64,000 nucleotides of DNA from Ilumatobacteraceae bacterium (GCA_963825565.1 CAWGTW010000014.1:23408-87407), one strand, 5' to 3'; positions 8,296 to 47,998 are shown, counted from the stretch's first letter. Made by a program: numbers and translations. Notes: generated by a model not told the origin, from the letters alone.

Positions 8296-8312
8296 ACTGA
8301 ACACTGTTCAGT
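8296..8312. promoter_or_regulatory. perfect 17-bp palindrome (ACTGAACA-C-TGTTCAGT), candidate TetR-type operator in a divergent promoter region
   Basis: Read directly from the sequence. It lies between the divergent Rieske oxygenase and cleavage-oxygenase genes, and a TetR gene sits immediately downstream of the latter. Confidence 0.35.
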
Positions 8313-8353
8313 TGATGCGCTACGGTGGTACCACCGACCAGGAAGGGCCGCCG

Positions 8354-9742: not shown

Positions 9743-9752
9743 GCCCGGTGTC

Positions 9753-10313
9753 GTGGCGCTCCTGACGCGGGCGCGCATCGTCGGCGAGGCCCTCCGCCTC
9801 GTCGAGCAGAACGGCTACGAGCAGCTGTCGCTGCGCGGGCTCGCGGCATCGCTCGACGTCACCGCGCCGGCGCTGTACGACCACGTCGCCTCGAAGGACG
9901 ACGTGCTCCAGGCGGTCGCCGCCGAGGGGTACCGAGCGCTCCAGGCGTCGTACCGGGCGCACGGCGGGCAGGCGATCGAGCGGGTCCGCGAGCGGGCGCT
10001 GGCCTACGTCGACTTCGCCCGCGACAACCCGGAGCTCTTCCGGCTGATGTTCGTGTTCCGGCCCCGGGCCGTGGCGATCGAGGCCGACAACGAGCTGAAC
10101 GCGGCGACCAACGTGTTCGAGAGCGCCGTCGAGGACGTGCGCCTGGCCATCGCCGACGGCGAGTTGTCCGATCGCGACGTCGACCAACTCGGGTTGACGT
10201 TGTGGGCGGCGATGCACGGCGTGGCGACCATCGCCACGATCGCCCCGCCGGTCGCCGATGCCGTCGCCGGCGACGTCATCGACGCGCTGCTCGCGGGGCT
10301 CCGACCGCGCTGA
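9753..10313 (+). CDS. TetR/AcrR family transcriptional regulator
   Basis: 186 aa. N-terminal HTH LSLRGLAASLDVTAPALYDHV. Starts at GTG, 11 nt after the oxygenase stop. Confidence 0.85.
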   Translation: MALLTRARIVGEALRLVEQNGYEQLSLRGLAASLDVTAPALYDHVASKDDVLQAVAAEGYRALQASYRAHGGQAIERVRERALAYVDFARDNPELFRLMFVFRPRAVAIEADNELNAATNVFESAVEDVRLAIADGELSDRDVDQLGLTLWAAMHGVATIATIAPPVADAVAGDVIDALLAGLRPR

Positions 10314-12312
10314 CGGCTGCGACGTTGGGGTCGCGATCGTCGCGCGCCGCCTCCCCGAGGTCACGACGCAAACGGAAGTCGGCGACCGAGGTGCGGATCC
10401 CGCCGGCGATGCCCTCCGGGTTGAGGATCGCGGTCAGGATCAGGAGCACCCCACCGACGTACACCTCCCAGGTGCCGAACGCATCGAAGACCTCGCCGGT
10501 GGCGAAGAACGCGACGCCCGACGTCGCCACGATGCCCGATGTGACGGCGCCGCTGACGCTGGTGATCCCGCCGAGATAGGCGACCGCCAACGCGGTCAAC
10601 GACGCGACCACGCCGAACGACGCATCGGACACGCCGCCGAAGCGGTAGCCGATCAACGTGCCTGCGATCCCGGCGATGAAGGCCGAGATGGCGAACGCAA
10701 GCAGCTTGGCGGAGGCGACGTTGACCCCGACCGCGCTGGCCGCCCGCTCGTTCGATCGGACGGCCAACGTCCTGCGTCCCGTCGGGCTCCGCCGAAGGTT
10801 GGCGACGAGCAGTGCGAGCAGGAGCGCGACGGCGACGAGGAAGATCCCGAAGATCGGCCGCGACGAGTTCGTGCCGAAGACGAGAGCGAAGTCCCAGTCG
10901 CCGAGTTTCGGGTGGGGGATCCTCGCCCCTCCGGTCGAGGCGTCGCCGACGAACGTCGGGTTCTTGAAGATGAACTCCGAGATCGCGACCCCGCCGGCGA
11001 GCGTGACGATGGCCAGGTTCGTGCCGCGCAGGCGGAGTGCCGGCAGACCGACGACGACGCCGATCACCGCAGCGACGAGCGCAGCGACCACCGGAGCGAC
11101 GGGGAACGGGAGATCCCAGTTCATCGCCAGCTTCGACAGCGAGAAGCCGGCCACGCCGGCGAACGCCATCTGGGCCAGCGACGTCTGGCCGGCGAAGCCG
11201 GTGATGACCACGAACGACAGCGCGAGCACCGTGCCGATCACCGTGGTCATGATCGCGCCGCGCCACAGCGGGCCGAGCACGAGCAGACCGACGACCGCCA
11301 GCGACACCGGGACGCCAATCGACACCGGCGTGATCCTGGCCGGCGGCACCGCCGGCAGCTTCCAGTCGTCGACCGCGCCACGTTCGGGCAACCGCTCGCC
11401 GAAGACGACCATCGCGACGATGATGATGAGGAACGGCAGCCCCTCTCGCGCCCCGTAGTCGGGGAACCAGCTCAGGTCGACCTGGAGCTTGGTGAACGTC
11501 GACTGCACCATCCCGATCGCCAGACCGGTCGCCACCGTGGGAACGACGTAGCGGAAGCTCCCGACGAGCGCCGCGCCGAGCGCCGGGACGAGAAAGCCGA
11601 ACGTGAACACGGTCGAGGTGAGCTGGATCATCGGCGCGGCGAGGATGGCGACGAAGCCGCCGACGAGGCTCGCCAGCACGAAGCTGAACCCGGCGAGGAA
11701 GTTGGGCGAGTACCCGAGCAGCACCGCACCCTTCTCGTTCTCCGCCGCCGCCCGGACGACCAGCCCGAGCCGGCTGTACCTCGTGTACGCCCACAGCGCG
11801 GCGGCGACGAGGATGACGATCAGCGCGAGCCACAGCCCGTCCCGTGGGACCGTCAGGTCGTCGGCGATCGTCACCGGCTCGCGCGGCAGGATCTTGCCGA
11901 CGCGGATGTTCTGCTTGTCGGAGAACCGCCGGTCGACCAGCGACGTGAACACGACGACCAGTCCCACGCTGGCGACGATCTTGGCCAGCGCCGGTGCCGT
12001 GGCCAGCGGCCGGAACACGAGGAGGTAGACGAGCAGTCCCATCAGGGCGGCGGTGAGCAGTGCCAGCGCCATCGCCCACCAGAACCCGACGTCGTTGTCG
12101 AAGTGGTAGCGACCCGGGAGCCCGGGGACGGGGAACGGGTACGCCCCTTCCCGCAGGTCGGCGTAGACGTAGACCACCCACATCGTCATGGCGCCGTACG
12201 CGAAGTTGACGACGCCGGACCCCTGGAAGGTGACGACCAACCCGAGGCCCAGCGCGGCGATGATCGCCCCGGCGCCGCTGCCGAGCAGCAGGTAGAACGC
12301 GTAGTCGGTCAT
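10276..12312 (-). CDS. branched-chain amino-acid-type ABC transporter permease (LivH-like and LivM-like modules fused)
   Basis: 678 aa and highly hydrophobic throughout, with two tandem permease modules in one ORF. The 3' end overlaps the convergent TetR gene by 38 nt. Confidence 0.85.
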   Translation of the reverse strand: MTDYAFYLLLGSGAGAIIAALGLGLVVTFQGSGVVNFAYGAMTMWVVYVYADLREGAYPFPVPGLPGRYHFDNDVGFWWAMALALLTAALMGLLVYLLVFRPLATAPALAKIVASVGLVVVFTSLVDRRFSDKQNIRVGKILPREPVTIADDLTVPRDGLWLALIVILVAAALWAYTRYSRLGLVVRAAAENEKGAVLLGYSPNFLAGFSFVLASLVGGFVAILAAPMIQLTSTVFTFGFLVPALGAALVGSFRYVVPTVATGLAIGMVQSTFTKLQVDLSWFPDYGAREGLPFLIIIVAMVVFGERLPERGAVDDWKLPAVPPARITPVSIGVPVSLAVVGLLVLGPLWRGAIMTTVIGTVLALSFVVITGFAGQTSLAQMAFAGVAGFSLSKLAMNWDLPFPVAPVVAALVAAVIGVVVGLPALRLRGTNLAIVTLAGGVAISEFIFKNPTFVGDASTGGARIPHPKLGDWDFALVFGTNSSRPIFGIFLVAVALLLALLVANLRRSPTGRRTLAVRSNERAASAVGVNVASAKLLAFAISAFIAGIAGTLIGYRFGGVSDASFGVVASLTALAVAYLGGITSVSGAVTSGIVATSGVAFFATGEVFDAFGTWEVYVGGVLLILTAILNPEGIAGGIRTSVADFRLRRDLGEAARDDRDPNVAAVSAVGAPRAARR

Positions 12313-12363
12313 CGATGGCCGCCCCTCACCGTGGCGCCGGCGACCGTCCCCAGCGGTTGGAGC

Positions 12364-13789
12364 TCACGGCAGGTAGTCGAAGGCGGAGACCGCCTCGAGC
12401 CCCGGAACGGTGACGACGTCGCCCCCCTCCTGGTACTCGGCGGCGGGGAACGTGAACGCGCAGATCGTCGGGTACGCCGCTGCCCGGCCGCATTCGATGG
12501 GCGCGCCGTCGGGCCACTGCCGGAGCCCGGAGCCAGCACGGAAGAACTCGTAGAGCGACGCTCCCGTGACGTCACCGCCGTCGGCGGCGATCCGATTGGA
12601 GTACTCGGCGAGCGACATCGCCATGTTGAGGGCCAGCGCGCCCAGGCCGAGCGCGTTCGGGTCGATGTCCTCGGGCGGCACGCCGAGCGCGGGCGACAGG
12701 ATGTCCTGCAGGATCGCTCGCTCCGGCGTGTCCTCGTCGGTCTGGACGCCGACGAAGATCCACCCGACGGCGTCGTCGCCGACCTCGTCGAAGACCGCCG
12801 TCCCGGCACAGAGGCCCGTGCTGAGCACGGGGGTCTCGATGCCGAGCGCGGCCCGCCCGCGGATCGTGCCGATGCAACCGGCGTCGGAGTACAGCGAGAC
12901 GAGGAAGTCGGGATCACCCTGGGCGGCCTGGCGCATCAGGCCCTGGTACCCGGCGTCGGTCTCGTTGTCGCCGCCCTTCACCGTGGTGTGCGCGATGCCG
13001 GCGATGTCGAGTGATGCGGTCAGCGAGGCCTCGCTGGCGTTGCCGCCGACGTTGTCAGCGCTGACGATGCCGACCGTCTTGGCCCCGAATTGCTCGGCCA
13101 CGGCGGCGACCGCCGCCATCGTCGTTGCGTTGCCTCCGGTGTAGGAAGAGCGCGTTCGCCGTGTAGTCGCCCGGCAGGATGGGGAGCAGGCCGATCACCG
13201 GGACGTCCGACGCGGTGTAGGTGGCGTAGTCGGGGAACAGGTCGACGCCGAGCAACACCAGCTCGACGCCCTGCCCGACGACCTCTTGGGCGCACGACTG
13301 CGAGCTCTCGGCTGACCCGTTGACCGTACAGTTGACGAGCTCGAGCGGACGGTTTCCGTAACCGCCGTGCTCGTTGAGGTAGTCGAACGTCGCGCCGATG
13401 TTGATCCGGATGTCGGGGAAGTCCAGCCCCGTCGTGCCCTCGGTGTTGACGAGTGCGACCTTCATCGTCTCGCCGGTCGGCGGGGCGAGCGTGGGGAACA
13501 CCGCGGTCGGGCTCGCGGCGTCCGCAGGCGCATCGGTCGCCGCAGGCGCATCGGTCGCCGCGGGCGCATCGGTCGCCGCGGGCGCATCGGTCGCCGCGGG
13601 CGCATCGGTCGCCGCGGGCGCATCGGTCGCCGCGGGCGCATCGGTCGCCGCGGGCGCGGTCGTGTCGTCGCTGCCCGAGTCGTCGCTGCTACATGCCGCT
13701 GCGACGAGTGCCAACGCGACGACCATGACGCGCAACGAACGCGGACGACGCGCAGCCGGCTTGCCTGTTCCGTACATGATCTCCCCCAT
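12364..13789 (-). pseudogene. ABC transporter substrate-binding lipoprotein (LivJ-like), interrupted by a 1-nt frameshift near 13141-13146
   Basis: ORFs 13055..13789 (signal peptide/lipobox VAAACSS, (APAATD)n linker, first lobe) and 12364..13119 (second lobe) are two halves of one periplasmic binding protein. The reading ...GDYTANALF / YTGGNATTMAAVA... needs a +1 shift. Confidence 0.75.
13524..13649. repeat. 18-bp tandem repeat x7 (GC[A/G]GGCGCATCGGTCGCC) encoding (APAATD)n in the binding-protein linker
   Basis: Seven head-to-tail copies plus a partial eighth, read directly. The repeat is in frame on the minus strand. Confidence 0.9.
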
Positions 13790-15560: not shown

Positions 15561-16154
15561 TCAGCGCGACCCCGAGGCGCTCCGGCGATCCGCCTCCCAT
15601 TCGGCGCGGGTGATCGCGTACTCCACGTCGCCCTCCTCGTCGCCGGGGATGCGCACCGGCCAGTCGGCGTGGAACGTCCGCACGTAGCGGAGCCCGGCCT
15701 TGTCCATCACCCGCCGGGAGGCGGTGTTGACCGCCATCGTCTCGGCGTGGATGCGCTCGACTCCGAGTTCGGTGAAGCCGTGATCGATCAGCCCGCGGGA
15801 TCCCTCCGTCGCCAGGCCACGTCCCCACGCCGCCCGATGCAGCCGGTACCCGAGCTCGGGCTCGAGCGGGCCGTCGCCGGCACCCGGACGGAGGTGGAAC
15901 CAGCCGACGAACGCTCCGGCCGCCCGCTCGATCGCCGCCCAGAAGCCGAACCCCTCGAACCGCTCGTAGTACCCGATCCAACAGGCGAGCGTCTCGGCCA
16001 GGTCGTCGTGATCGACCGGGGCACCTCCGTCGATGAAGCGCTTGACCCCGGGGTCGGCATCGAGGTCGACGAGCAGCGTTAGGTCGTCGGGGGTGAACGT
16101 GCGCAGCACGAGTCGCGGGGTCTCCAGCACCACGTGCGCTTCCACCGCCACCAT
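15561..16154 (-). CDS. GNAT family N-acetyltransferase (RimJ/RimL-like)
   Basis: From ATG 16154: MVAVEAHVVLETPRLVLRTFTPDD...YRLHRAAWGRGLATE...AVNTASRRVMDKAGL. The upstream part of the 300-aa ORF is Arg/Trp-rich and overlaps the divergent gene. Confidence 0.8.
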   Translation of the reverse strand: MVAVEAHVVLETPRLVLRTFTPDDLTLLVDLDADPGVKRFIDGGAPVDHDDLAETLACWIGYYERFEGFGFWAAIERAAGAFVGWFHLRPGAGDGPLEPELGYRLHRAAWGRGLATEGSRGLIDHGFTELGVERIHAETMAVNTASRRVMDKAGLRYVRTFHADWPVRIPGDEEGDVEYAITRAEWEADRRSASGSR

Positions 16155-16236
16155 TCTGGCCGACACCGCCGACCCCGCGAGCGGCGATCGAGGACCGGTC
16201 GACCACCACGCCCACCGGCGGCGTACGATCCACCCG

Positions 16237-17679
16237 ATGTCGCGATCGCAGCCCGGAGCCGACGCCATCGTCGTCGGCTCCGGCCCGAACGGTCTCGTCG
16301 CGGCGATCACGTTGGCCTCCGCCGGGTGGAAGGTGACCGTCCTCGAAGCGGCGCCCCGCCCCGGTGGCGGCACCCGTTCCGAGGAGCTGACCCTGCCGGG
16401 CGTCGTCCACGACGTCTGCTCGGCCATCCACCCGCTCGGGCTCGCGTCGCCGGCCCTGCGCACCCTCCCGCTCGCCGAACACGGTCTGGAGTGGGTGCAG
16501 CCCGACGTGCCGTTGGCCCACCCGCTCGACGACGGGCGCGCCGCCCTGCTCCACCGCTCGGTCGAGGCGACCGCCGACGCGCTCGGCGCCGACGGCCCTG
16601 CCTACCGCAGGCTGTTCGACCCGTTCGTCCGGTCGGGGTTCGACCTGACCGACGGCCTGCTCGCCCCGCTGACCGTGCCTCCGCCGCATCCGGTCGTGCT
16701 CGCCCGGTTCGGCCTGGTCGGCATCCAGCCGGCTGCGCTCGTCGACCGGCGGCGATTCACGACCGACGAGGCCGGTGGGCTGCTCGCCGGGCTCGCCGCG
16801 CACTCGATGCTGTCGCTGCGGGCGGTGACGACCGCCGGATACGCGATCATGCTCGGCGGTCTCGGCCATCTGGTCGGGTGGCCGATGGCCCGTGGCGGCT
16901 CGCAATCGATTGCCACGGCGCTCGTCGGCGTGCTCCGCAGCCTGGACGGCGACGTCGTCTGCGACGCGCCGGTCACCGCGCTCGACGAGTTGCCGCCCGC
17001 CCGAGCCGTGCTGCTCGACCTCACACCGCGCCAGGTGCTGGCGCTCGCCGGTGACCGCCTGCCGATGCGCTACGCCCGCCAGCTCGCCCGGTACCGGTAC
17101 GGCCCCGGCGTGTTCAAGCTCGATCTCGCGCTCAGCGGTCCGATCCCGTGGACGAACCGCGAGGTCGCCAGGGCGGCGACCGTGCACCTCGGTGGCACGA
17201 TGGCCGAGATCGCCGCCGCCGAGGACGACGTCCTTCACGGGCGGCACCCCGAGCGCCCCTACGTCCTGCTCGCCCAACACACGCTGTTCGACGACAGTCG
17301 AGCGCCGGCCGGCACGCACACGGTCTGGGCCTACTGCCACGTCCCGAACCGCTCGACGACCGACATGACCGACCGCATCGAGTCCCAGGTCGAACGGTTC
17401 GCCCCGGGGTTCCGCGACCTGATCGTCGGCCGCCACACGATGGCCGCCGCGGCGATGGAAGCCCACAACGCGAACTACGTCGGCGGCGACATCAACGGCG
17501 GTGCGGCCGACCTCCGCCAGTTCGTCGCCCGGCCGACGCTCGGGCTCCACCCGTGGGCGACCCCGGTCGAGGGGCTGTACCTCTGCTCGTCCTCCACGCC
17601 CCCCGGAGGCGGCGTCCACGGCATGTGCGGCCTCCACGCCGCCCGCGAGGTCCTGCGGCGGCAGCCACTCGTCGACTGA
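16237..17679 (+). CDS. NAD(P)/FAD-dependent oxidoreductase, phytoene-desaturase (CrtI)-like family
   Basis: From ATG 16237: MSRSQPGADAIVVGSGPNGLVAAITLASAGWKVTVLEA (dinucleotide-binding fold). About 480 aa with a C-terminal GGGVHG motif. Confidence 0.75.
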   Translation: MSRSQPGADAIVVGSGPNGLVAAITLASAGWKVTVLEAAPRPGGGTRSEELTLPGVVHDVCSAIHPLGLASPALRTLPLAEHGLEWVQPDVPLAHPLDDGRAALLHRSVEATADALGADGPAYRRLFDPFVRSGFDLTDGLLAPLTVPPPHPVVLARFGLVGIQPAALVDRRRFTTDEAGGLLAGLAAHSMLSLRAVTTAGYAIMLGGLGHLVGWPMARGGSQSIATALVGVLRSLDGDVVCDAPVTALDELPPARAVLLDLTPRQVLALAGDRLPMRYARQLARYRYGPGVFKLDLALSGPIPWTNREVARAATVHLGGTMAEIAAAEDDVLHGRHPERPYVLLAQHTLFDDSRAPAGTHTVWAYCHVPNRSTTDMTDRIESQVERFAPGFRDLIVGRHTMAAAAMEAHNANYVGGDINGGAADLRQFVARPTLGLHPWATPVEGLYLCSSSTPPGGGVHGMCGLHAAREVLRRQPLVD

Positions 17680-17811: not shown

Positions 17812-19212
17812 GTGACCCGAACCGGCGTCGATGTGGGTGACACCATCCCGACAGCGACCGGCGCGGCGGGAATCCGCGAGCGGCCGCTGGAGTACTTCGA
17901 GCACTGGCGCAGCCAACTCGGCGACCTGTTCGCGATCGACATGGCCGGGCCGCTGCTGTCCAGATCGCCCGACTGCCCCGGCGTCTACGCGGTGTTCGGC
18001 GAGGCTCACCAGCGGGCGGTCCTGAGCGACATCGAACGCTTCGTGCTGCCGGTCTCCGCCGCGGTCCGGCTCGATCTCCCCGAGACGTTGCGCAACCTCA
18101 ACGTCGGTCTCCACAGCAAGCGCGGCCGCACCCACGACGACGAGCGGCGGATGATCGCGTCGGTGCTCGCCGCCATAGACCCACCACGGATCGGTGGCGT
18201 GGCCGCCGAGGTCGCCGCAGTCGTCGCCCGGCACGCGCGCCAGCCGTTGGGCCTGCTCGACCTGATGCGCGGCATGGTCGCATCGCTGTCCGACCGCCTG
18301 TTCTTCGGCGATGCCGCTGACGAGGGCACCACCGAGGCACTGGTGTCGTACTTCCATCTCCGCCGGTCGGCGTCAGCTCCGGGTATGACCCTCGACGATT
18401 CGATGTGGCGCCGACTGGTCGATGCGGGCAACGCTGCCGATGCGGCGTTGCGCAGCTACCGGCGCGAGGTGGTACGTGATCGGTCCGGCCACGACCTGGG
18501 AGGCCTCGCCCCGCTGGCGAACGGGACCGCCGGACCGATCGACGAGGACGCATTCGTCGGCCACGCCAACGTGTTGTTCGTGTCGGCCAACGAACCGATC
18601 GCCGTCGCGCTGACGTGGACGCTGCTCGTCCTGAGTCAGCTGCCGGCGCTTCGACAGGCGCTGCGCGCCGAACTCGCGCAGGCGCGTGTCGCCGGTCCGT
18701 ACCCCGCTTCGCGCGAGCTGCCGACGATGCGGATGGTCGTGAGCGAGTCACTCCGCGTCCTGACCCCCAACGCGTTCATGGTGCGGGTGACATCGGAGCC
18801 GGTGACGCTCGGCGGCCACCTCCTGCCGAGTGGGGCCGAGATCGTCCTCAGCCCGCTCGTCGCCCATCGCGACCCTTCGGTGTTCGCCGATCCGACGCGG
18901 TTCCAGCCGTCGCGTTGGTCACGGATCAGGCCATCGGCGTACTGCTACTTCCCGTTCGGCGCCGGTGGTCACAGCTGCGTCGGGCGGGCGTTGGCGACGG
19001 AGATGATCCACTCGTGCCTGTCCGCGCTCCTCGACCACGGCGACATCGTGCTCACCGTCGATGCCGACGTCGACTGGCGGGTCGACGTGATGCTCACGCC
19101 CACCGTCGATCCTCCGGTCACGATGGTTCGCCGCGAACCGACCGGGGCGGTCGGCGGCGTGCTGCGCGGCGGCGTGACCCGACTCGTCAGGCTCCCCGAC
19201 GAGTGGTCGTGA
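17812..19212 (+). CDS. cytochrome P450 (first gene of the RiPP cluster)
   Basis: 466 aa. Heme-thiolate loop FPFGAGGHSCVGRALA, ExxR (ESLR), and PSRW meander region. Confidence 0.9.
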   Translation: MTRTGVDVGDTIPTATGAAGIRERPLEYFEHWRSQLGDLFAIDMAGPLLSRSPDCPGVYAVFGEAHQRAVLSDIERFVLPVSAAVRLDLPETLRNLNVGLHSKRGRTHDDERRMIASVLAAIDPPRIGGVAAEVAAVVARHARQPLGLLDLMRGMVASLSDRLFFGDAADEGTTEALVSYFHLRRSASAPGMTLDDSMWRRLVDAGNAADAALRSYRREVVRDRSGHDLGGLAPLANGTAGPIDEDAFVGHANVLFVSANEPIAVALTWTLLVLSQLPALRQALRAELAQARVAGPYPASRELPTMRMVVSESLRVLTPNAFMVRVTSEPVTLGGHLLPSGAEIVLSPLVAHRDPSVFADPTRFQPSRWSRIRPSAYCYFPFGAGGHSCVGRALATEMIHSCLSALLDHGDIVLTVDADVDWRVDVMLTPTVDPPVTMVRREPTGAVGGVLRGGVTRLVRLPDEWS

Positions 19213-19248
19213 GACGGACCGAGGCGACGATTGCGACGCACCGCAAAG

Positions 19249-19289
19249 TGTGGTCAGATGGACCACAATCCATGACGTGGAGACCACGT
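19249..19289. promoter_or_regulatory. two adjacent palindromes upstream of the precursor gene: TGTGGTC-agatg-GACCACA (19249-19267) and ACGTGG-aga-CCACGT (19275-19289)
   Basis: Read directly. Both share a GTGG-N-CCAC core and lie 20-60 nt upstream of ATG 19310. They could be an operator pair or an RNA hairpin. Confidence 0.3.
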
Positions 19290-19309
19290 TCCGTCCAGAG
19301 GAGAACCTG

Positions 19310-19564
19310 ATGGCCACTCGGAAAGCCGCTGCGAAGAAGTCCACTGCGAAGAAGCCGGCCGCGAAGAAGCAGGCTGCCGCCCGCCCCGCCGCTCCCGAGA
19401 TCAGCGTGTCGGCGATGATCCCGAAGATGACGGTCTCGATGCCGCTCGACGACAAACGCATCGCCGCCATCCAGCGGTGCATCGCCAAGGGGAACCTGAC
19501 GGTCACGTTCAGCAGGATCGATCTCGCAGCCGGCAAGCTCGGGGACGGTTGGCTGTACGACTGA
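19310..19564 (+). CDS. candidate RiPP precursor peptide (84 aa) ending ...AAGKLGDGWLYD*
   Basis: A GAGGAG RBS lies 8 nt before ATG 19310. It sits between the P450 and the MNIO. Lys/Ala-rich N-terminus, one Cys, and a C-terminal Trp-Leu-Tyr-Asp. The longest ORF starts at GTG 19250. Confidence 0.6.
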   Translation: MATRKAAAKKSTAKKPAAKKQAAARPAAPEISVSAMIPKMTVSMPLDDKRIAAIQRCIAKGNLTVTFSRIDLAAGKLGDGWLYD

Positions 19565-19579
19565 TGGCCGCACCCGTGG

Positions 19580-20461
19580 GTGCCGACGGGCACGCCGTCG
19601 ACGGCGGGGACTGACGTGCGCTTCCTCGACCCCGATGCGACGACGATCCAGATCGGGCTGGCGTACGGGGAACCGGCCCTGCAGTACCTCAACCTCCATC
19701 CCGACGGCGTCGACTACGTCGAGGTGCCGTTCGAGCAACTCCGTCACCGCCCCGGTGTGGCGCGACTGCAAGAGCACATCCCACTCGTCCTGCACTGCGC
19801 CAGCCTGTCGGTCGCAGGGACGGTGCCGCCCGACCCGGCCACCGTGCAGGCGATCGCCGCGACGATCGAGCGGATGCGGTCGCCATGGCTCGGCGAGCAC
19901 CTCGCGTTCATCTCGGCGCACGGGCTCGGGGAAGGTCAAGCCGACGCGATCGAGCTGACCTACACGGTCTCGCCGCAGTTCAGCCACGAATCGGTTGCGC
20001 AGGTCGCTCAGAACGTCGCCGCGATCCGCCCCGCCATCGGCGACGTACCGCTGATCCTGGAGAACACACCGTCGTACGTGACGGTGCCGGGCAGCACGAT
20101 GTCGAGCGCCGAGTACATCGCCGCAGTGCTGCGCGCCTGCGACGTCGGCCTGCTGCTCGATCTGAGCCACTTCCTCATCACCTGCACGAACACCGGCGCC
20201 GATCCCATCGCGGAGCTCTCGAAGATCCCGCTCGATCGAGTCGTCGAGATCCACCTGTCGGGGGTGAACGTCCAGGGGGGCCGGGCGTGGGACGACCATG
20301 CCTCGCCGGTACCCGCTGCAGTGTTCGACCTGCTCCGCATCGTCCTGCGCGAGGCCTCGCCGCGCGCGGTGACCATCGAGTACAACTGGCCGTCCGAAGC
20401 GACCGCATCGGTGATCGACGAGCACGTTCGAGTGGCCACCGAGATGGCGCGCGCGTCATGA
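19580..20461 (+). CDS. DUF692 / multinuclear non-heme iron oxidase (MNIO; MbnB/TglH/ApyH family)
   Basis: Family blocks VDYVEVPFE, PLVLHCASLSVAG, SPWLGEHLAF, PLILENTPSYV, LLLDLSHF, VVEIHLSG, WDDHASPV, TIEYNW. Alternative start at GTG 19616. Confidence 0.85.
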   Translation: MPTGTPSTAGTDVRFLDPDATTIQIGLAYGEPALQYLNLHPDGVDYVEVPFEQLRHRPGVARLQEHIPLVLHCASLSVAGTVPPDPATVQAIAATIERMRSPWLGEHLAFISAHGLGEGQADAIELTYTVSPQFSHESVAQVAQNVAAIRPAIGDVPLILENTPSYVTVPGSTMSSAEYIAAVLRACDVGLLLDLSHFLITCTNTGADPIAELSKIPLDRVVEIHLSGVNVQGGRAWDDHASPVPAAVFDLLRIVLREASPRAVTIEYNWPSEATASVIDEHVRVATEMARAS

Positions 20462-21276
20462 CGCCGGCCCAGGCCCAATCGCTGCTCGCAGCCGGCCTCG
20501 ACGACCCGTGGTTGATCGAGCGGTGGCGGCGCGAACCCGAGCTGCTCGGCCCGCTCGGTGTCGACGATCCCGGCGTCGTCGATCTCGACACCCTGGCCCG
20601 GTTCGCGGGCATGGCGGCGATGGTCAAGCACAATCAGCTGCGCTCGTTCCTGCCGCTGACGTTCCGACTCATGCGTTCGTACGGCGTCGATCTCGAGCTG
20701 TTCACGGCGTACGCCATGACCCGTTCGCGCACGCGCATGGCGTTCGCTCCGTCGGCCGCCGGCAAGGCGGTCGATCTGGTCGAGTTCGCGTCCGGCTGGC
20801 TCGGCCCGGACGACGCCGCGCACGTCGCGGTGCTGGACGCGGCCCGCTACGAGCTGGCGGTCGCCCGCCTCGGGCCTTGGTTCGATGCGGGCCTGCCCGC
20901 AGGGACGGACCCGGTGCGCGACGGTGCGGGCGTGCGCGGCCACATCATCCTGCTCGAGCTCCGGTCCGAACCCGCCACGCTGGCCGACGCGCTCGAATCG
21001 GGCATCGACACCTCGTCGATCGCGCTGTCGCCACGGTCGACGTGCCTGTGGCGCGATCCCGTCGGCCACGTCTCGATCGTGTCCCTCGACCCGCTGCACT
21101 TCGAGGTGCTTGCGTCGATCGCCGACGACCGCCCGTTGCAGCAACTGGTCGACGCGTTGGACGTGGCCGGGGCGGCGGTGGTCGTCGCCGAGGCGGCACG
21201 ACGTCTCGCCGAGGCGGGCGTCGTCTCGACGATCGGCATCGAACGCGTCGAGCGCGAGGCGCTCCTGTGCACCTGA
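20458..21276 (+). CDS. MNIO partner protein with a C-terminal RRE-like winged-helix segment (MbnC/TglI/ApyI-type role)
   Basis: ATG 20458 overlaps the MNIO stop (ATGA). 272 aa. The C-terminus HFEVLASIADDRPLQQLVDAL...AEAARRLAEAGVV resembles PqqD-like peptide-binding domains. Confidence 0.6.
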   Translation: MTPAQAQSLLAAGLDDPWLIERWRREPELLGPLGVDDPGVVDLDTLARFAGMAAMVKHNQLRSFLPLTFRLMRSYGVDLELFTAYAMTRSRTRMAFAPSAAGKAVDLVEFASGWLGPDDAAHVAVLDAARYELAVARLGPWFDAGLPAGTDPVRDGAGVRGHIILLELRSEPATLADALESGIDTSSIALSPRSTCLWRDPVGHVSIVSLDPLHFEVLASIADDRPLQQLVDALDVAGAAVVVAEAARRLAEAGVVSTIGIERVEREALLCT

Positions 21277-23225
21277 CGCTCGTCGACAACATGGTGATGC
21301 CCGGGGAGGGCGACCTCGGGATGCTCGACGTCCACCCGCATCTCGGCCTGCTCTCGCTCGCGGCTGCAGCCGAGGCGAGCGGGCACACCGTCGACATCTA
21401 CGACCCGAAGCGGATGCTGCGGTCGGGGCAACTGCGCTACGACGACGAGCTCTACGACCGGGCGACGGCGGCGATCCTGGCGCGTCATCCCGACGCGGTC
21501 GGGTTCACGACCCTGGGGTGCAGCTTCATGTTCGCCATCAACGTCGCCGCGCTCCTCAAGCGCGCCGAACCGGAGCTGCCGATCCTGCTCGGCGGCCCGC
21601 ACGCGACGATGCTCGATCGCCCCATCCTCGAGCGGTTCGATCAGTTCGACGTCATCGTGCGCCACGAGGCCGACCAGGTCTTCCCCGACGTGCTCGGGGC
21701 ACTCCCCGCCCGGCGCTTCGAGGCCATCGAGGGGCTGAGCTGGCGCGACTCGGGCGGGGAGCTGCGCTTCACCGCCGGCAAGCCGATCGTCACCGACCTC
21801 GACTCCCTGCCGCTGCTGTCCTACGACCACTACCCGATCGCCGACCTCGGCCTCGACCTGTTGCGGATCGAGGCCGGCCGCGGGTGCCCGTTCCGATGCA
21901 CGTTCTGCTCGACCGCAGGATTCTTCCAGCGGAGCTTCCGCCTCAAGTCCCCCGAGCGGCTGGTCACCGAGCTCGAACGGCTGCGGACGCTGTACGGCTA
22001 CTCCGACGTCAAGCTCGATCACGACATGTTCACGGTCAACAAGCGCAAGGTGCTCGACTTCTGTGAAGCGGTCGCCGGACGCGGGTTCCGTTGGCGGGCT
22101 TCGGCACGCGTCGACCGCGTCGACGACGGGCTTCTCGAACGGATGGCCGACGCCGGTTGCGTCGGGCTGTACTTCGGGATCGAGAGCGGGTCGGCGCGGC
22201 TGCAGCAGATCATGAAGAAGGGGCTCGACGTCGATCGCGTCGAGCACACGCTGCAGACGGCCGAGGCGCTGGGGATCGAAACCACCGCATCGTTCATCAC
22301 CGGGTTCCCCAGCGAGGAGCGGCAGGACCAGGATGACACCCTCGACCTCGTCGGCAGGTGCCTCCGTACGACGAGCATCACCCAACTCCACATTCTGCAA
22401 CCAGAGCCCGGCACGCCGATGTACGAGGAGTTCGGGTCGGCCATCGAGTACGACGGCTATTCCAGCCCGTTCAACACGCACCTGCTCACCGACGACGACC
22501 ACCGGCTGGTCACGACCACGCCGTCGATCTTCCAGACCTACTACTTCTATGCGACTGCTTTGCCTCGGTCGGACCACGTGTTCGCCGTCGAGACCGTCGA
22601 GTTGCTGCGCCGGATCGGACCGCGGGTCGCGGCCTACATGCTGCGGGGGTTCGACGGGCGCCTGAGCCGACTGGTGAGCGACCTGCGGACGTTCTGCGCC
22701 GATCGAACAGCCGGTGGGTCGCTGTCGCCGACCGCGTTCGCCGACTTCGTCGCCGACCGGTTCGGCGCGCAGCACCACCTGACCTCACTCGTTCGCCTCG
22801 GGCTGCTGCTCCACGATCCCCGGGTGCCGACGGCGTCGCCGGCGTCCGACGCCTACGATCCGACGACGACCTACGTCCTCGATGCCGACGTGTACATCCT
22901 GACCGAGATGCACGATCCGGAGGTCTGGATGCAGCGCATCGCGGGCAGTGCCGGCAACGCGCTGCTCGACGACGACGGCCACGCCGAGACGAGCCTCGTC
23001 GTGCGGCGCGGGATCCAGCCGCCGTCGGTCCACCGAGTCGATGACGGGGCGGTCGCGGTGCTCGAGCTCTTCGACGAGCCGCGACGACCCGACCAGCTGA
23101 TCGAGCGCCTCGGCCTACCGCCCACGGACGCGATCGCGGTCCACGAGCTCATCGAAGGTCTGGCGCGCTCGACGCTGCTCGTGCCATCGCCCGGCATCGC
23201 GTTCGGCACCGAGGACTCCAGCTGA
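21267..23225 (+). CDS. B12-binding-domain radical SAM enzyme (class B rSAM, probable C-methyltransferase)
   Basis: GTG 21267 overlaps the upstream gene by 10 nt. N-terminal cobalamin-binding-like domain (LGLLSLAAAAEASGHTVDIYD, ILLGGPHAT). CxxxCxxC = GCPFRCTFCS. About 220-aa C-terminal extension. Confidence 0.85.
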   Translation: MHLTLVDNMVMPGEGDLGMLDVHPHLGLLSLAAAAEASGHTVDIYDPKRMLRSGQLRYDDELYDRATAAILARHPDAVGFTTLGCSFMFAINVAALLKRAEPELPILLGGPHATMLDRPILERFDQFDVIVRHEADQVFPDVLGALPARRFEAIEGLSWRDSGGELRFTAGKPIVTDLDSLPLLSYDHYPIADLGLDLLRIEAGRGCPFRCTFCSTAGFFQRSFRLKSPERLVTELERLRTLYGYSDVKLDHDMFTVNKRKVLDFCEAVAGRGFRWRASARVDRVDDGLLERMADAGCVGLYFGIESGSARLQQIMKKGLDVDRVEHTLQTAEALGIETTASFITGFPSEERQDQDDTLDLVGRCLRTTSITQLHILQPEPGTPMYEEFGSAIEYDGYSSPFNTHLLTDDDHRLVTTTPSIFQTYYFYATALPRSDHVFAVETVELLRRIGPRVAAYMLRGFDGRLSRLVSDLRTFCADRTAGGSLSPTAFADFVADRFGAQHHLTSLVRLGLLLHDPRVPTASPASDAYDPTTTYVLDADVYILTEMHDPEVWMQRIAGSAGNALLDDDGHAETSLVVRRGIQPPSVHRVDDGAVAVLELFDEPRRPDQLIERLGLPPTDAIAVHELIEGLARSTLLVPSPGIAFGTEDSS

Positions 23226-23290
23226 CCGACGGGACTGCTCCGTCATGGGGTGCGTTCGACCTCGTCGAGGGGCTGCACCTGGGCCACGCG

Positions 23291-24208
23291 GTGGCCGCGC
23301 TGCACGAGCTCGGAGTGCTCGCCGCGCTCACCCGGCCGCGACGCCCCGCGGAGGTCGCCGCCGAGCTCGCACTCGACCCGGCCATGCTGTCCGGGGTGCT
23401 CGAGTACTGTGCCGCACGTACCGACATCGTCGAACGGGTCGGTACCCGGTTCGCCGCCCGCAACTACGATGCCGCAACCCAGTACCTCCTCGATCTGTAC
23501 GCCGGTGCGTTCGCTCCCAACGCCGTGGAACTCGCTGTGTTGCTGCGCAGCCCGGAGCGCGCGCATGACGCCGTCGATCGATCCCGTCACGCTCGGGCGT
23601 TCGTCCGGGCGCCGGACGGTCCGGAGGGGACACCGGCCGCGCTGCTGGCCCAGCTCGGCGTTCGGCGTGTGCTCGATCTCGGCTGCGGACAGGGTGCTCT
23701 GCTCCGGGCGATGGCCGTCGCCGACGACGAATTCCAGGGATGGGGCATCGACGCGAACCCGACCACCTGCCGCGGTGCCCGGATGGCGATGTGCGATGCC
23801 GGCGTGTCGGGGCGCGTCCGGATCATCCGCGGCGACGGGTTCCGGCCCGAGCGCCACCTGACGACGAAGATGATCGAGTCGATCGAAGCGGTCGTCGCTC
23901 GCGACCTCCTCGACGAGCTCTTCGCTCAGGACGCTACCGCCGCCACCTCATGGCTACGAGGGCTGCGCGCCGAGTTCCCCAGCCGACTGCTGTTGATCGG
24001 GGACTACTACGGCCGGCTCGGCCATCGTCGGGCGCGCGGAGACCGCCGAACACTGCTGCACGACTACGCCCAGGTGATCACCGGGCAGGGTGTCCCCCCG
24101 CCCACCCGCGCCGCCTGGGCTGCGATCTACCGAGACGCCGGAGTCCGCTTGATCCACGTCATGGAGGACCGTTCGACGACCAAGTTCTTGCACCTGCTTC
24201 ATCTCTGA
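23291..24208 (+). CDS. class I SAM-dependent methyltransferase (O-MT-like, N-terminal winged-helix/dimerisation segment)
   Basis: Motif I VLDLGCGQGALL. The N-terminus ...VAALHELGVLAALTRPRRPAEVAAEL is typical of small-molecule MTs. The true start may lie slightly upstream, because the frame is open back to 23222. Confidence 0.8.
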   Translation: MAALHELGVLAALTRPRRPAEVAAELALDPAMLSGVLEYCAARTDIVERVGTRFAARNYDAATQYLLDLYAGAFAPNAVELAVLLRSPERAHDAVDRSRHARAFVRAPDGPEGTPAALLAQLGVRRVLDLGCGQGALLRAMAVADDEFQGWGIDANPTTCRGARMAMCDAGVSGRVRIIRGDGFRPERHLTTKMIESIEAVVARDLLDELFAQDATAATSWLRGLRAEFPSRLLLIGDYYGRLGHRRARGDRRTLLHDYAQVITGQGVPPPTRAAWAAIYRDAGVRLIHVMEDRSTTKFLHLLHL

Positions 24209-24364: not shown

Positions 24365-24826
24365 GTGACCGCGATGCCGCTGCGGCTGAGCGAACTCCTG
24401 GAACGGATCCGACCGGCGGGAACCCCCGGCGCGCCCGCCGAGGGTGAACAGGTGCGCCAGCGCAGCAACCGCGACCGCGAGCTCGTCGACGTGCTCGCGG
24501 TCGTGGCGTCGATCGAGCGCGAGGCCGCCGAGATCGTCGACGCCGCCGGAGCCGAGGCCGAGCGGATCCACCGCGACGCCGTGGAGCGGACCCGTATCAT
24601 CCGCGCCGGACGAGACGACCAGGTCGCGGCCGCCGGAGCCGAGGCGGCACAGCACGACGACGCGTTGGCCGATGTCGTGGGCGCCGCGATCGCCGACTCG
24701 GCTGCGCAGGAGCGAGACGAGCTGCGCTCCCGCGCCGACATCCTCATCCCCGACCTCGTGAGGCGGGCGACGGAGTCGATCTGGACCACGATCGTCCCCG
24801 AGGCGCGCATCGGGGGCCGGCGATGA
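24365..24826 (+). CDS. putative A/V-type ATPase peripheral-stalk subunit (H/G-like coiled-coil protein)
   Basis: 153 aa. Ala/Glu/Arg-rich helical sequence (VASIEREAAEIVDAAGAEAERIHRDAVERTR). It is the first gene of the operon and is ATGA-coupled to subunit C. The assignment rests on context. Confidence 0.45.
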   Translation: MTAMPLRLSELLERIRPAGTPGAPAEGEQVRQRSNRDRELVDVLAVVASIEREAAEIVDAAGAEAERIHRDAVERTRIIRAGRDDQVAAAGAEAAQHDDALADVVGAAIADSAAQERDELRSRADILIPDLVRRATESIWTTIVPEARIGGRR

Positions 24827-25732
24827 CCGCCGGCTGGGTCGCACCGGTGACGAGGGGACGAGCGATCCTCGGTCGTCTCGTCGGTGCCGACGGCGCGCGG
24901 ACGCTCGCCGAGATGAGTTCGTGGGACGAGGCACGTGCCGAACTGGGTCGCACGATGTACGCCACCGGCCTTCCTCCCGATGCCGGGCGGCAGGCCGCTG
25001 TCCGATCCGCGCACGCCTCGGCGATCTGGCAACTCCGGGTCCTGGCCGGCTGGATGCCTCCGGAGCACACGGTCCTGCCACGGCTGTTCGCCGCACCGTT
25101 CGAGATGAGGAACATCGAGCAACACCTCCGCTCGCTGCGCGATCACACCCCGACCGACCCGCTCCCCCTCGGCTCGCTCGCCGTCGCCTGGCCGGCTGTG
25201 TCCCGGACGAAGACCGTCGAGGAAGCCCGCCACGTGCTCGCCCGGACGGTGTGGGGCGATCCCGGTAGCACGGATCCGCCCGAGTTGGCGCTGGCGTTGC
25301 GCGTCGGGCTCGCCCGGCGCGCCGTCGCCCGCCTCCCCGTGGCGAAGGAGTGGGCGTGCGGAGCGGTGGCCGTGCTCGTCGCCCGGGAGCGGTTCGCGTT
25401 CTCCCGGCCGGTCGAGGACACGACCGCCGGAGTGGTGAGCCGCCTGGTCGGTCGTGCATGGGGCGGAGCCGTGTCGGTCACCGACCTCGCCGACCACCTC
25501 CCCCCACGGGCGGCGTGGCCACTCGCCGATGTCGACGACCCGCGCGATCTCTGGCGCGCCGAGCTCGCCGTCGCGGCGCGGGTCGCCGGCGATGCGCGCA
25601 CGCTCGCGGCGTCGAACCGATTCGACGTGCGCACTGCGGCGGCGATGATGGCACTGCTGCTCGTCGACCTCTGGCGCGTGCAGGCAGCGATCGAGCTCGC
25701 AGGACGGGGACCGATTCCCACCGAGGTGTTCG

Positions 25733-25746
<14 letters not shown>
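24823..25746 (+). CDS. A/V-type ATP synthase subunit C (d-like)
   Basis: 307 aa and helical. Its size and position between the stalk and I subunits fit, and it overlaps both neighbours. The family call is mostly contextual. Confidence 0.55.
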
Positions 25747-27558
<1,812 letters not shown>

Positions 27559-27565
27559 GCCTGGC

Positions 27566-27784
27566 ATGAGCACCGTCATCGCCATCGGCGACGACCCCGA
27601 GCTGCCCGGATTCGCCCTCGCCGGCGTGGGGATCCGGCGCGCCCGGACCGACAGCGAGATCATCGACGCCTGGACCACTGCCGAACCCGACGTCGGTCTG
27701 GTCATCCTCTCGACACGAGCCGCTTCGGTCCTGGGCGCAGCGCTGGTCGAACGCCCCGATGTGCTCACGGTGGTCCTGCCGTGA
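27566..27784 (+). CDS. A/V-type ATP synthase subunit F
   Basis: 72 aa. VIAIGDDPELPGFALAGV...VGLVILS is the typical F-subunit pattern. Confidence 0.7.
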   Translation: MSTVIAIGDDPELPGFALAGVGIRRARTDSEIIDAWTTAEPDVGLVILSTRAASVLGAALVERPDVLTVVLP

Positions 27785-28347
27785 CCGCGACGATGAGCGC
27801 CGGCTCCGAGCGGACCGCGGTGGAGCGCACGCTGCAACCCGTGCGCGCAGCCCTCCTCGCCGATGCCGAACGGGAGGCCGCCGAGATCCGGGCGGCCGCA
27901 CGCACGGCGGCCGATGCGCTGATCGCCGAGGCCGAGCGCGAGGTTGCCACGGCCGTCGAGCAGGAGCGAGAGCGAGCACGACGGTCGGCACGCGCCCGCG
28001 CCGACCACAACGCGTCGGACGCCCGCCGCGCCGCCCGCCAGCTCCTGCAGGCTGCCGGCGAGTCCGAGCGCACCCGATTGATCCAAGCACTGCACGCCAC
28101 GATCGGACGCCTCCGCGACGACGACCGGTATCCGCAGCTCGTCGACGCGCTGGAACGGCGGGCGCGAGCGCAACTCGGCGACGGCGCCGACCTCCGACGC
28201 GACCCGGCCGGTCGGGGTGGCATCGTCGGTCGCGCCGGTCCACGAAGCGTCGACTACACCCTCGACGCGCTCGCCGACCGCGCCCTCGCAGCATTGGGGG
28301 AGGAGGTGGCGACGTTGTGCAGCCCGCACCGCAAGCCGGACGCGTGA
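27781..28347 (+). CDS. A/V-type ATP synthase subunit E
   Basis: GTGA-coupled to F. Has an N-terminal long coiled coil (AEREAAEIRAAARTAADALIAEAEREV) and a C-terminal globular part (GRGGIVGRAGPRSVDYTLDAL). Confidence 0.7.
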   Translation: MTATMSAGSERTAVERTLQPVRAALLADAEREAAEIRAAARTAADALIAEAEREVATAVEQERERARRSARARADHNASDARRAARQLLQAAGESERTRLIQALHATIGRLRDDDRYPQLVDALERRARAQLGDGADLRRDPAGRGGIVGRAGPRSVDYTLDALADRALAALGEEVATLCSPHRKPDA

Positions 28348-30050
28348 CGCGCGTCAACGGGCCGGTCGTCCACCTCGCGGGCCTGCCCGATGTCGCGCGG
28401 TTCGAGTTCGTCGAGGTCGGCGATGCCGAGCTACCGGGTGAGGTGGTCATGGTCGACCGAGACGTCGCCGTCGCCCAGCTCTACGAGTACAGCGGTTCGC
28501 TGCGCGTCGGGGAGCCGGCGCGGAGCACCGGGCACCCGCTGTCGATCGAGCTCGGACCGGGGCTGCTCGGCGGCGTCTACGACGGTCTCCTCCGACCGCT
28601 GGCCGGCGCCGACCGGTTCCTCGGGCCGCGCCGTCTCGTCCCTCCGCCGGCGACCGAACACCGCTTCTCACCGATCGCGGCGATCGGGACCGACGTCGGA
28701 CCCGGCCATATCCTCGGCACGATCGACACCGCCGGGAACGTCGAACACCGCGTCCTCGTCCCCCCGGGCCACGGGGGTCGTCTCGACCTCATCGCCGAGC
28801 CCGGGCGCTGTCTCGGCACGGCGACGATCGCCACCATCGACGGGCGCTCCGTCTCGGCCACGACGCACTGGCCGATTCGGCTCCCACGACCAGCCGTCCG
28901 GTACCTCGGCGATGCCGAACCGTTCCACACCGGTCAGCGAGTCCTCGACGGGCTGGTCCCGATCGCCCGCGGCAGCTCGGCGACGGTGATCGGCGGGTTC
29001 GGCGAGGGCAAGACGATGCTGCTCGAACAGGTCGCAAAGTGGGGGGACGCCGACGTCATCATCTACGTCGGATGTGGCGAGCGCGGCAACGAGCTCACCG
29101 ACCTGATCCACGAGCTCACCGAGCTGGTCGACCCGCGGACCGGTGCCCGGCTCATGGAGCGCACGATCATCCTCGCCAACACGTCGAACATGCCGGTCAT
29201 GGCCCGCGAGGCGAGCATCCACACCGCAGCGACGATCGCCGAGTTCTACCGCGACATGGGCCACCACGTCGTCGTCATCGCCGACTCGACCTCGCGGTGG
29301 GCCGAGGCGCAGCGCGAGCTCGCCGGCCGAACCGGAGCAATTCCCGCCGAGGAGGGCTACCCGGCCGATCTGCCCGCAGCCCTCGCCGCGTTCTATCAAC
29401 GCGCCGGTCGGATCACCACCCCTGACGGACGGGACGGCTCGGTCACCATCGTCACCTCGGTCTCGCCGGCCGGAGGCGACCTCACCGAGCCGGTCTCGGC
29501 GCACACGCAACGGTTCGTCCAAGCGGTGTGGACCCTCGACCGCGACCTCGCCTATGCCCGCCACTACCCGGCGGTCAGCTGGCGACAGTCGTCCTCGCGT
29601 GACACCGAGCGGTTGGCACGCTGGTACACGGCTCAGGGCGACCCCGACTGGGCCGTACGCCGCGCCCGGCTCGCCGCCCTGCTGACCGAGGCCGACCGTC
29701 TCCGAACGATCGCCGACCTCGTCGGCGTCACCGCCCTCCCGCCCGACGAACGCATCGTCCTGCTCACCGGCCGGCTGGCACGCCAGGCCGTCCTCCAGCA
29801 GAGCGCGCTGAGCCCCAACGACGCGTCGTGCTCACCGGGCAAGCAGGCCGCGCTGATCGATGCCGTGCTCGCGGTCCACGACGTCGGCCTGCAGCTCATC
29901 GACGACGGCCTCCCGGCCAGCGTCATCGAGACCTACGACTTCGGCCCACTCATCCGCGCCAAGGACGACATCGGCACCGACGACCCTGCCGGCATCCGCC
30001 GGGTCGCAGCCGGCACCATCGACGGGCTGCGCGAGAGCAGGCAGCGATGA
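28317..30050 (+). CDS. A/V-type ATP synthase catalytic subunit A
   Basis: P-loop GGFGEGKTML, GCGERGNE, Walker B VVVIADSTSRWAEA, PAGGDLTEPV. Starts at GTG 28317 within the end of the E gene. Confidence 0.92.
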   Translation: MQPAPQAGRVTRVNGPVVHLAGLPDVARFEFVEVGDAELPGEVVMVDRDVAVAQLYEYSGSLRVGEPARSTGHPLSIELGPGLLGGVYDGLLRPLAGADRFLGPRRLVPPPATEHRFSPIAAIGTDVGPGHILGTIDTAGNVEHRVLVPPGHGGRLDLIAEPGRCLGTATIATIDGRSVSATTHWPIRLPRPAVRYLGDAEPFHTGQRVLDGLVPIARGSSATVIGGFGEGKTMLLEQVAKWGDADVIIYVGCGERGNELTDLIHELTELVDPRTGARLMERTIILANTSNMPVMAREASIHTAATIAEFYRDMGHHVVVIADSTSRWAEAQRELAGRTGAIPAEEGYPADLPAALAAFYQRAGRITTPDGRDGSVTIVTSVSPAGGDLTEPVSAHTQRFVQAVWTLDRDLAYARHYPAVSWRQSSSRDTERLARWYTAQGDPDWAVRRARLAALLTEADRLRTIADLVGVTALPPDERIVLLTGRLARQAVLQQSALSPNDASCSPGKQAALIDAVLAVHDVGLQLIDDGLPASVIETYDFGPLIRAKDDIGTDDPAGIRRVAAGTIDGLRESRQR

Positions 30051-47987: not shown

Positions 47988-47998
47988 GATCGGTCTCC

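Follow-up and report, generated by a model that had tools for sequence, protein, structure and literature searches.

The closest described relative of the system reported here is the aminopyruvatide biosynthetic gene cluster of Burkholderia thailandensis E264 (Nguyen et al., ACS Cent Sci 2024, PMC11117315), whose product is a peptide made by ribosomes and modified after translation (RiPP). Precursors of the ApyA type are diverse in sequence and share a central C-B-X2-3-G motif (where B is hydrophobic) and a C-terminal Asp, and they carry a Trp or Tyr as second-last and fourth-last residue only in clusters that include a cytochrome P450 (PMC11117315). [quoted passage not shown] Here we analyse a 64,000-nucleotide stretch of DNA (GCA_963825565.1 CAWGTW010000014.1:23408-87407, labelled Ilumatobacteraceae bacterium), called the window below, in which an 84-codon open reading frame (ORF) lies on the plus strand at 19310..19564 between genes for a P450 and an MNIO. 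It is highly likely (probability about 0.9, based on sequence comparison) that this ORF encodes an ApyA-homologous precursor of an aminopyruvatide-type RiPP within a complete apyO-A-H-I-D-S cassette, because the peptide and the five enzymes around it are homologous to Apy proteins, some 20 loci are collinear, and all the precursor hallmarks are present.

The resemblance to B. thailandensis extends to the six genes and their order, O-A-H-I-D-S, and the peptide shares with ApyA the CBX2G motif, the C-terminal Asp, a Leu between two aromatic residues and a basic residue eight positions before the Asp. It differs from ApyA in having W81 in place of Tyr6 (WLYD versus YLYD), Lys instead of Arg at the position recognized by the P450, and 36 rather than 18 residues before the IPKM motif. 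The host also differs, having 70% G+C and being probably actinobacterial.

The ApyA-like precursor peptide

The ORF starts with ATG and ends with a TGA at 19562-19564, and its translation reproduces exactly the 84 residues given in an earlier note on this DNA, which had proposed it as an unusual candidate precursor for the adjacent MNIO. The numbering of W81, Y83 and D84 in that note was right, whereas its single Cys, placed at residue 55, is residue 57 (codon 19478-19480). ORFs of this length are common by chance at the 70% G+C of the window; a chance ORF is nevertheless contradicted by conservation of the protein across phyla, and the ORF is a genuine gene. A Shine-Dalgarno-like GAGGAG ends 7 nt 5' of the ATG, the identical 84-residue product was called, with identical neighbours, in two independent metagenome assemblies, and 24 further proteins in a collection of 5.8 billion match the peptide with E values down to 2e-21. 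No second precursor copy was found in the window, making 19310-19564 the sole one.

Over its last 54 residues the peptide aligns without gaps to B. thailandensis ApyA, with 52% identity and 80% similarity (BLASTP, E 4e-25). It scores 85.6 bits on the ApyA equivalog model NF050146 (curated cut-off 47) and 78.1 bits on the broader ApyA subfamily model NF050152 (cut-off 40). Reference sequences of ApyA, ApyH and ApyI were taken from the supplementary table of PMC11117315; ApyD, ApyS and ApyO were assessed with NCBIfam models in place of a direct comparison with the B. thailandensis proteins, the ApyD sequence being missing from that supplement.

Each of the family hallmarks is found in the peptide. 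The central motif is C57-I58-A59-K60-G61 (19478-19492), with C57 and G61 invariant in an alignment of 30 sequences. D84 directly precedes the TGA, and Asp is the last residue in 29 of the 30 sequences, the only other one being a truncated fragment. W81 (-4) and Y83 (-2) make up the aromatic pair, the P450 gene stands immediately upstream, and K76 aligns with the Arg of ApyA that occupies position 1 of RMGEGYLYD. The motif C57-I-A-K-G61 lies within a conserved recognition region spanning residues 37-75 (19418..19534, plus strand; IPKM...MPLD...AAIQRCIAKG...DL..G), which is followed by the predicted core KLGDGWLYD, residues 76-84 (19535..19561, plus strand), the counterpart of RMGEGYLYD in ApyA. 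In the same alignment A53, I54, C57, G61, L63, D71, L72 and G75 are invariant, and conservation reaches 90% or more at I37, P38, K39, M44, P45, L46, D47, Q55, R56, L82, Y83 and D84. What is conserved in the peptide is thus its C-terminal ~48 residues, which align across phyla without insertions or deletions.

These features support the proposal that the ORF encodes a RiPP precursor for the adjacent MNIO, which follows from the homology to ApyA and the conserved cassette. They do not support its description as unusual, since the peptide is typical of a family for which curated NCBIfam models already exist. The exact 84-residue peptide was absent from the supplementary tables of PMC11117315; closely similar WLYD peptides whose N-termini are AKK-rich do appear in them, from a Xanthomonadales metagenome-assembled genome (MAG) and from Dyella tabacisoli. 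WLY is the commonest natural motif among ApyA orthologues (n=23; PMC13192836, a 2026 preprint).

AlphaFold2, run with a 16-sequence alignment, gave a low-confidence structure (mean predicted local distance difference test score, pLDDT, 54.8) in which a helix over the Cys motif (residues 48-59) is all the secondary structure predicted, with the N-terminal extension (pLDDT ~47-52) and the C-terminal core unstructured. A mostly disordered peptide of this kind fits the expectation for a RiPP precursor whose extension is disordered.

The N-terminal extension, residues 1-36 (19310..19417, plus strand), precedes the IPKM motif and is indeed rich in Lys and Ala, as the earlier note had pointed out: it is 56% K+A, has a net charge of +8 and contains AKK repeats. 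The view that this would be atypical for a leader did not hold up, since the extension is a family trait that most homologues possess. Among 22 homologues, the stretch before (I/L)PK(L/M) is 18-48 residues long with a net charge of +2 to +15; Lys/Ala-rich versions like that of the window occur in Lysobacterales, Pyrinomonadaceae and Massilia, and B. thailandensis ApyA (MATKPKKTKG...) and the peptides from Bryobacterales and Kofleriaceae have a short AKK region (~10-18 residues). The extension is the gap-rich, least conserved part of the 30-sequence alignment, falls outside the 47 positions of NF050146 and outside the conserved recognition and core regions, and is predicted to be disordered. 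A 15-bp tandem repeat at 19329-19370 (2.8 copies, consensus CTGCGAAGAAGCCCA) encodes A-A-K-K-x units; together with the spread of 18-48 residues among homologues, it suggests that the extension may grow and shrink by DNA slippage at short repeats. Two weak family matches were discarded as low-complexity similarity: the Pfam HC2 histone H1-like family (PF07382; 20.8 bits against a gathering cut-off of 40, E 4.5e-4) and FlgM (22.6 bits against 40.75).

Within the 97-bp gap between the P450 stop codon and the apyA start, we also observed a perfect 7-bp inverted repeat, TGTGGTC-N5-GACCACA, at 19249-19267, 43 nt 5' of the apyA ATG. It might serve as an operator or fold into a small hairpin.

The apy cassette and its conservation

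The plus-strand gene order is FAD oxidoreductase, P450, small ORF, MNIO, a 272-residue protein, a B12-binding radical SAM (S-adenosylmethionine) enzyme, a methyltransferase and an A/V-type ATPase operon. The genes from the P450 to the methyltransferase form, as judged from their sequences, a complete and intact apyO-A-H-I-D-S cassette at 17812-24208. The predicted ApyO homologue is a 466-residue cytochrome P450 (17812..19212, plus strand; Pfam p450, 6.2e-32) with the heme-ligand motif FGAGGHSCVG at residue 382; its best match is NF050147 (aminopyruv_ApyO), over the full length, at 478.6 bits against a curated cut-off of 525. Downstream of the precursor lies the ApyH homologue, a 281-residue MNIO of the DUF692 family (19616..20461, plus strand; PF05114, 4.4e-45), which is 53% identical to ApyH from end to end (280 residues, E 1e-100). 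It scores 393.3 bits on the ApyH model NF050151, 6.7 bits short of the cut-off of 400, and this is its best match by 267 bits. Both the alignment to ApyH and the metagenome gene calls are consistent with its start at 19616.

The 272-residue protein (20458..21276, plus strand), whose gene shares its first 4 nt with the end of the MNIO gene, is a predicted ApyI-type MNIO partner and peptide-binding protein, a type in which a RiPP recognition element is expected. It is 32% identical to ApyI over its full length (E 1e-34), and the ApyI model NF050149 is its only NCBIfam match (182.9 bits, cut-off 200). The ApyD homologue is a 652-residue B12-binding radical SAM C-methyltransferase (21267..23225, plus strand; Pfam B12-binding and Radical_SAM) that scores 958.9 bits on NF050148 (rSAM_ApyD; cut-off 750) and has the cluster motif CPFRCTFC at residue 207. 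A '905-residue' ORF at 20508-23225 is an artefact whose first ~250 residues are Arg-rich and out of frame; it really corresponds to ApyI and ApyD. The cassette closes with the ApyS homologue, a SAM-dependent methyltransferase of 305 residues (23291..24208, plus strand), with motif I, VLDLGCGQG, at residue 127 and 408.8 bits on NF050150 (RiPP_MTase_ApyS; cut-off 400). Scans for promoters and terminators across the cassette returned none.

A family-alignment scan of 185,579 species-representative genomes yielded 23 loci, with which the window proteins were compared by tblastn. Most are from MAGs of Lysobacteraceae and other Lysobacterales, Dyella tabacisoli and Tahibacter soli; the others come from Burkholderiaceae, a betaproteobacterial MAG, Massilia, two Acidobacteriota MAGs (Pyrinomonadaceae and Bryobacterales) and a Kofleriaceae MAG. 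The gene order is the same in 21 of the 23 loci, spanning Lysobacterales, Burkholderiales, Acidobacteriota and Myxococcota, with P450, peptide, MNIO, partner, radical SAM enzyme and methyltransferase collinear wherever the contig is long enough. Identities to the window proteins are 39-52% for the P450 (21 loci), 50-60% for the MNIO, 32-42% for the partner, 53-63% for the radical SAM enzyme (full-length matches) and 42-62% for the methyltransferase. The earlier note had suggested a search for homologous small ORFs beside such enzymes, and the outcome agrees with a precursor role: some 20 loci keep the small ORF beside these enzymes, and what is conserved in it is the C-terminal ~48 residues, including C57, G61, Y83 and D84, and not the AKK-rich part. 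The FAD oxidoreductase, a nearby GNAT gene and the downstream ORFs had no tblastn counterpart in the other apy loci, all-against-all clustering of flanking ORFs revealed no further family common to these loci beyond the cassette, and no protease or transporter gene among the flanking ORFs was conserved with it.

Close relatives of the peptide are WLYD-type homologues from Lysobacterales (e.g. Dyella tabacisoli NZ_KZ857175.1 and Lysobacteraceae MAGs), which share the Lys/Ala-rich 'MATTRKP..KKAA..' N-terminus, the AIQRCI(A/E)KG segment, the G(K/R)LG..WLYD C-terminus and the cassette. They differ from the window in sequence (57-69% identity for the peptide and 37-63% for the enzymes, in full-length matches) and in having unrelated flanking genes. 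Apy-like clusters have also been reported from actinomycetes, which probably belong to the host phylum of the window, with peptides ending in ...EDGYLWD in Kitasatospora sp. RG8 and Streptomyces sp. CB01881 and in ...GVIVD in Streptomyces smaragdinus. As in the window, an MNIO and its partner stand beside a peptide that ends in Asp and has C-hydrophobic-x-x-(x)-G at its centre; unlike that of the window, the actinomycete peptides have no Lys/Ala-rich N-terminus and carry YLW or no aromatic pair. The MNIO of the window is 50-52% identical to the actinomycete enzymes and 57-60% identical to those of Lysobacterales, and in a neighbour-joining tree of ApyH (no bootstrap) it forms a long branch that is sister to a Lysobacterales clade and stands apart from the actinomycete enzymes.

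Three of the loci deserve separate mention. In a Deltaproteobacteria MAG (VBLP01000281.1, locus 8001-8400) the apyA frame runs into the C-terminal third of apyH (…SKVDLAELGRMPLERVVEVHVSG…) and neither P450 nor methyltransferase is present; to all appearances this is either what a deletion has left of the cluster or a chimera of the assembly. The complete chromosome of Massilia sp. H-1 (CP087969.1, locus 8001-12500) has an apparently frameshifted ApyA-like ORF that is devoid of the conserved C-terminus (…ITVSKTRSGRRASRRCLAVRL), together with fragmentary matches to the P450, partner and methyltransferase, a picture of a decaying apy cluster. A MAG labelled Chitinophaga pinensis (CALRWS020000008.1) has 67% G+C and a cassette nearly identical to that of Lysobacteraceae/Thermomonas MAGs, and this contig is probably mis-binned or mislabelled.

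Predicted chemistry and competing explanations

By analogy with ApyA, residues ~37-75, including C57-I-A-K-G61, would form the element recognized by the ApyH and ApyI homologues, in which the Cys would be required yet remain unmodified. In ApyA, replacement of the Cys by Ser, Ala, Asp or His abolishes ApyHI activity, and the residue stays an unmodified L-Cys, as established by alkylation, NMR and Marfey analysis, with all modifications on YLYD (PMC11117315). The P450 may bind the C-terminal ~10 residues via K76 and cross-link W81 to Y83. For ApyO, the C-terminal 10 residues of ApyA suffice and a basic residue is required at position 1 of RMGEGYLYD; on an engineered WLY substrate the enzyme formed a bond from Trp indole-N1 to Tyr-C-epsilon-2 (PMC13192836), and the W81-Y83 bond would most likely likewise join the Trp indole N1 to Tyr C-epsilon. 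The P450 cross-link of the Trp-x-Tyr pair suggested earlier is in this way supported by the ApyO homologue upstream, by W81 and Y83, and by the frequency of WLY among natural motifs.

The ApyD homologue would then methylate the beta-carbon of the penultimate Tyr, Y83, as ApyD is reported to methylate Tyr8 (PMC13192836). The MNIO and its partner would oxidatively convert the C-terminal D84 into aminopyruvic acid, and the ApyS homologue would methylate the beta-carbon of the resulting keto acid. The mass of the C-terminal fragment would shift by a net -4.0 Da or so, the cross-link contributing -2, the conversion of Asp into aminopyruvate -30 and the two methylations +14 each; the masses calculated for ApyA are 629.2696 and 625.2747 (PMC11117315 supplement). 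The earlier idea of ApyH-like chemistry on the C-terminal Asp is thus favoured, by homology, by the 53% identity to ApyH and the conservation of D84. The likeliest function of the product would be inhibition of cysteine proteases, because desmethylaminopyruvatide A, the GluC pentapeptide of ApyA with the P450, MNIO and methyltransferase modifications, blocks papain-family proteases: papain and cathepsins B and L are inhibited at 0.3-0.6 nM, and trypsin and chymotrypsin are not (PMC13192836).

Several points weigh against this assignment. Three of the five enzymes score below their equivalog cut-offs (ApyH by 6.7, ApyI by 17 and ApyO by 46 bits), so the cassette is divergent and its functions could differ in detail, and in most loci it is 39-63% identical to other full-length members. 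With an R1K substrate, conversion by the B. thailandensis ApyO is poor (~8%; PMC13192836), so with K76 in place of Arg the P450 of the window would have to be co-adapted to Lys. The N-C linkage itself came from a non-native enzyme-substrate pair (PMC13192836), and the native WLY-type P450 may therefore form a different bond. The apy chemistry proposed for this locus derives from experiments on the B. thailandensis system. It is unlikely, though not far-fetched, that the native product differs, for example in another Trp-Tyr linkage, and that, separately, the basic extension has a function of its own, either by binding polyanions or nucleic acid and so retaining the precursor or as a handle for an unlinked leader protease or exporter, and would then amount to more than a neutral, disordered spacer.

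Other explanations depart further from aminopyruvatide biosynthesis. The MNIO could modify C57 in the manner of MbnB, TglH and BufB (oxazolone-thioamide, thiooxazole, carbon excision), with the C-terminal Asp being incidental. MNIO and partner acting on a ribosomal peptide are common to the window and to methanobactin (MbnA/MbnBC), pearlin (TglA/TglHI), bufferin (BufA/BufBC) and oxazolin systems, and these MNIOs modify Cys, many of their precursors having Sec signal peptides, whereas the closest described enzyme to that of the window targets a C-terminal Asp. A Cys substrate would fit the invariance of C57 across the family, the preference for Cys among most characterised MNIOs (table in PMC12452194) and the next-best NCBIfam matches of the enzyme, which are BufB (126 bits) and HvfB (92 bits). 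We nonetheless consider it quite improbable, as it was contradicted on several sides: the enzyme resembles ApyH over its full length, scoring 393 bits on that model against 126 on BufB, and lies well below the cut-offs of the Cys-type models (310 bits for BufB and 360 for HvfB); the equivalent Cys of ApyA is unmodified (PMC11117315); and D84 is kept in 29 of 30 sequences. The earlier suggestion of the lone Cys as MNIO substrate is accordingly not upheld.

That the ORF might instead encode a small histone-like or nucleoid DNA-binding protein (HC2/H1-like), placed beside the enzymes by chance, appears very improbable. The Lys/Ala-rich, strongly basic residues 1-36 and the HC2 match (E 4.5e-4) are what speaks for it, and yet that match reaches half the gathering cut-off and involves low-complexity sequence only, the Lys/Ala region is the most variable and length-variable part among homologues while the ApyA recognition and core regions are conserved, and the gene always lies between those for the P450 and the MNIO. 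Next to nothing is left, finally, for the notion of an untranslated chance frame in 70% G+C DNA. Against the conservation of the C-terminal 48 residues across phyla without indels, the fixed position in the cassette, the Shine-Dalgarno sequence before the ATG and the concordant independent gene calls, it can draw on the many spurious ORFs of like length in the window and on the GC3 (G+C at third codon positions) of the stop-to-stop frame 19178-19564, which at 0.81 is lower than in neighbouring genes.

An aromatic-x-aromatic tripeptide encoded beside a P450, as in the window, is also typical of biarylitides, SlyP-type products and cittilins. The authors who described the apy products explicitly keep them apart from the biarylitides, on the ground that some apy clusters have no P450; the class-defining enzyme is the MNIO (PMC11117315). 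A precursor of the aminopyruvatide type stays our preferred assignment for the ORF.

Genomic surroundings and significance

Directly upstream of the P450, a CrtO/CrtI-like FAD oxidoreductase gene (16033-17679, plus strand) is absent from all other apy loci, and a carotenoid-cleavage-dioxygenase-like gene lies 6 kb further upstream (8201-9742, plus strand); both are probably neighbours related to carotenoids, as opposed to tailoring enzymes. As annotated, the oxidoreductase runs at its N-terminus into the divergent GNAT gene (15561-16463, minus strand), so that the start of one or both is probably shorter in reality. Directly after the methyltransferase comes the A/V-type ATPase operon (24374-31462, plus strand), which opens with two unannotated ORFs of 150 and 307 residues, followed by subunit I (25733-27085), subunit A (within 27570-30050) and subunit B (within 29603-31462). 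In tblastn searches of plasmid records, the best matches of the V-ATPase subunit B were in Streptomyces and Embleya (~60%) and those of an acyl-CoA synthetase in Streptomyces, Nocardia, Nonomuraea and Mycobacterium (41-47%), so that the flanking genes weakly point to an actinobacterial host, as do a mycosin-like subtilase and a 'mycobacterial holin' domain encoded elsewhere in the window. Base composition showed no island-like anomaly, no tRNA genes were found in the window, and horizontal acquisition of the cassette is possible.

Further away, two very large S8 subtilase genes adjoin each other 25-30 kb from the cassette, one at 49130-54616 (plus strand; 1828 residues with PA, fn3_6 and Big_12 domains) and the other, mycosin-like, at 55101-57905 (plus strand; 934 residues). 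No link between these subtilases and the apy cassette is suggested, as desmethylaminopyruvatide A spared trypsin and chymotrypsin in the literature. In a 674-residue protein (41326-43350, minus strand), a 'mycobacterial 4-TMS phage holin' domain (PF04020) at the N-terminus is joined, in an unusual fusion, to a region that weakly matches type I phosphodiesterase. The window also holds two 2-oxoacid/pyruvate dehydrogenase E1 sets, an E1-alpha/E1-beta/E2 operon at 1968-5449 (plus strand) and a second E1-beta with a probable E1-alpha at 46965-49048 (minus strand).

Taken as a whole, the locus is a moderately divergent and otherwise ordinary member of a known, curated RiPP family and not a new kind of system, because the ORF sits in a standard six-gene apy cluster. 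An 'aminopyruvatide family RiPP' is what automated annotation based on NCBIfam would call the peptide; family, hallmarks and chemistry are already described, curated models for detection are available, and no new question is opened here. What is gained is one more intact, fairly divergent aminopyruvatide-type cluster with a natural W-L-Y-D core, probably from an actinobacterial host, in a family with derivatives that inhibit papain-family cysteine proteases at sub-nanomolar concentrations (PMC13192836). Since natural WLY-type enzyme sets are uncharacterised with their own substrates, this cluster is a reasonable candidate for expression and for comparison of the P450 linkage.

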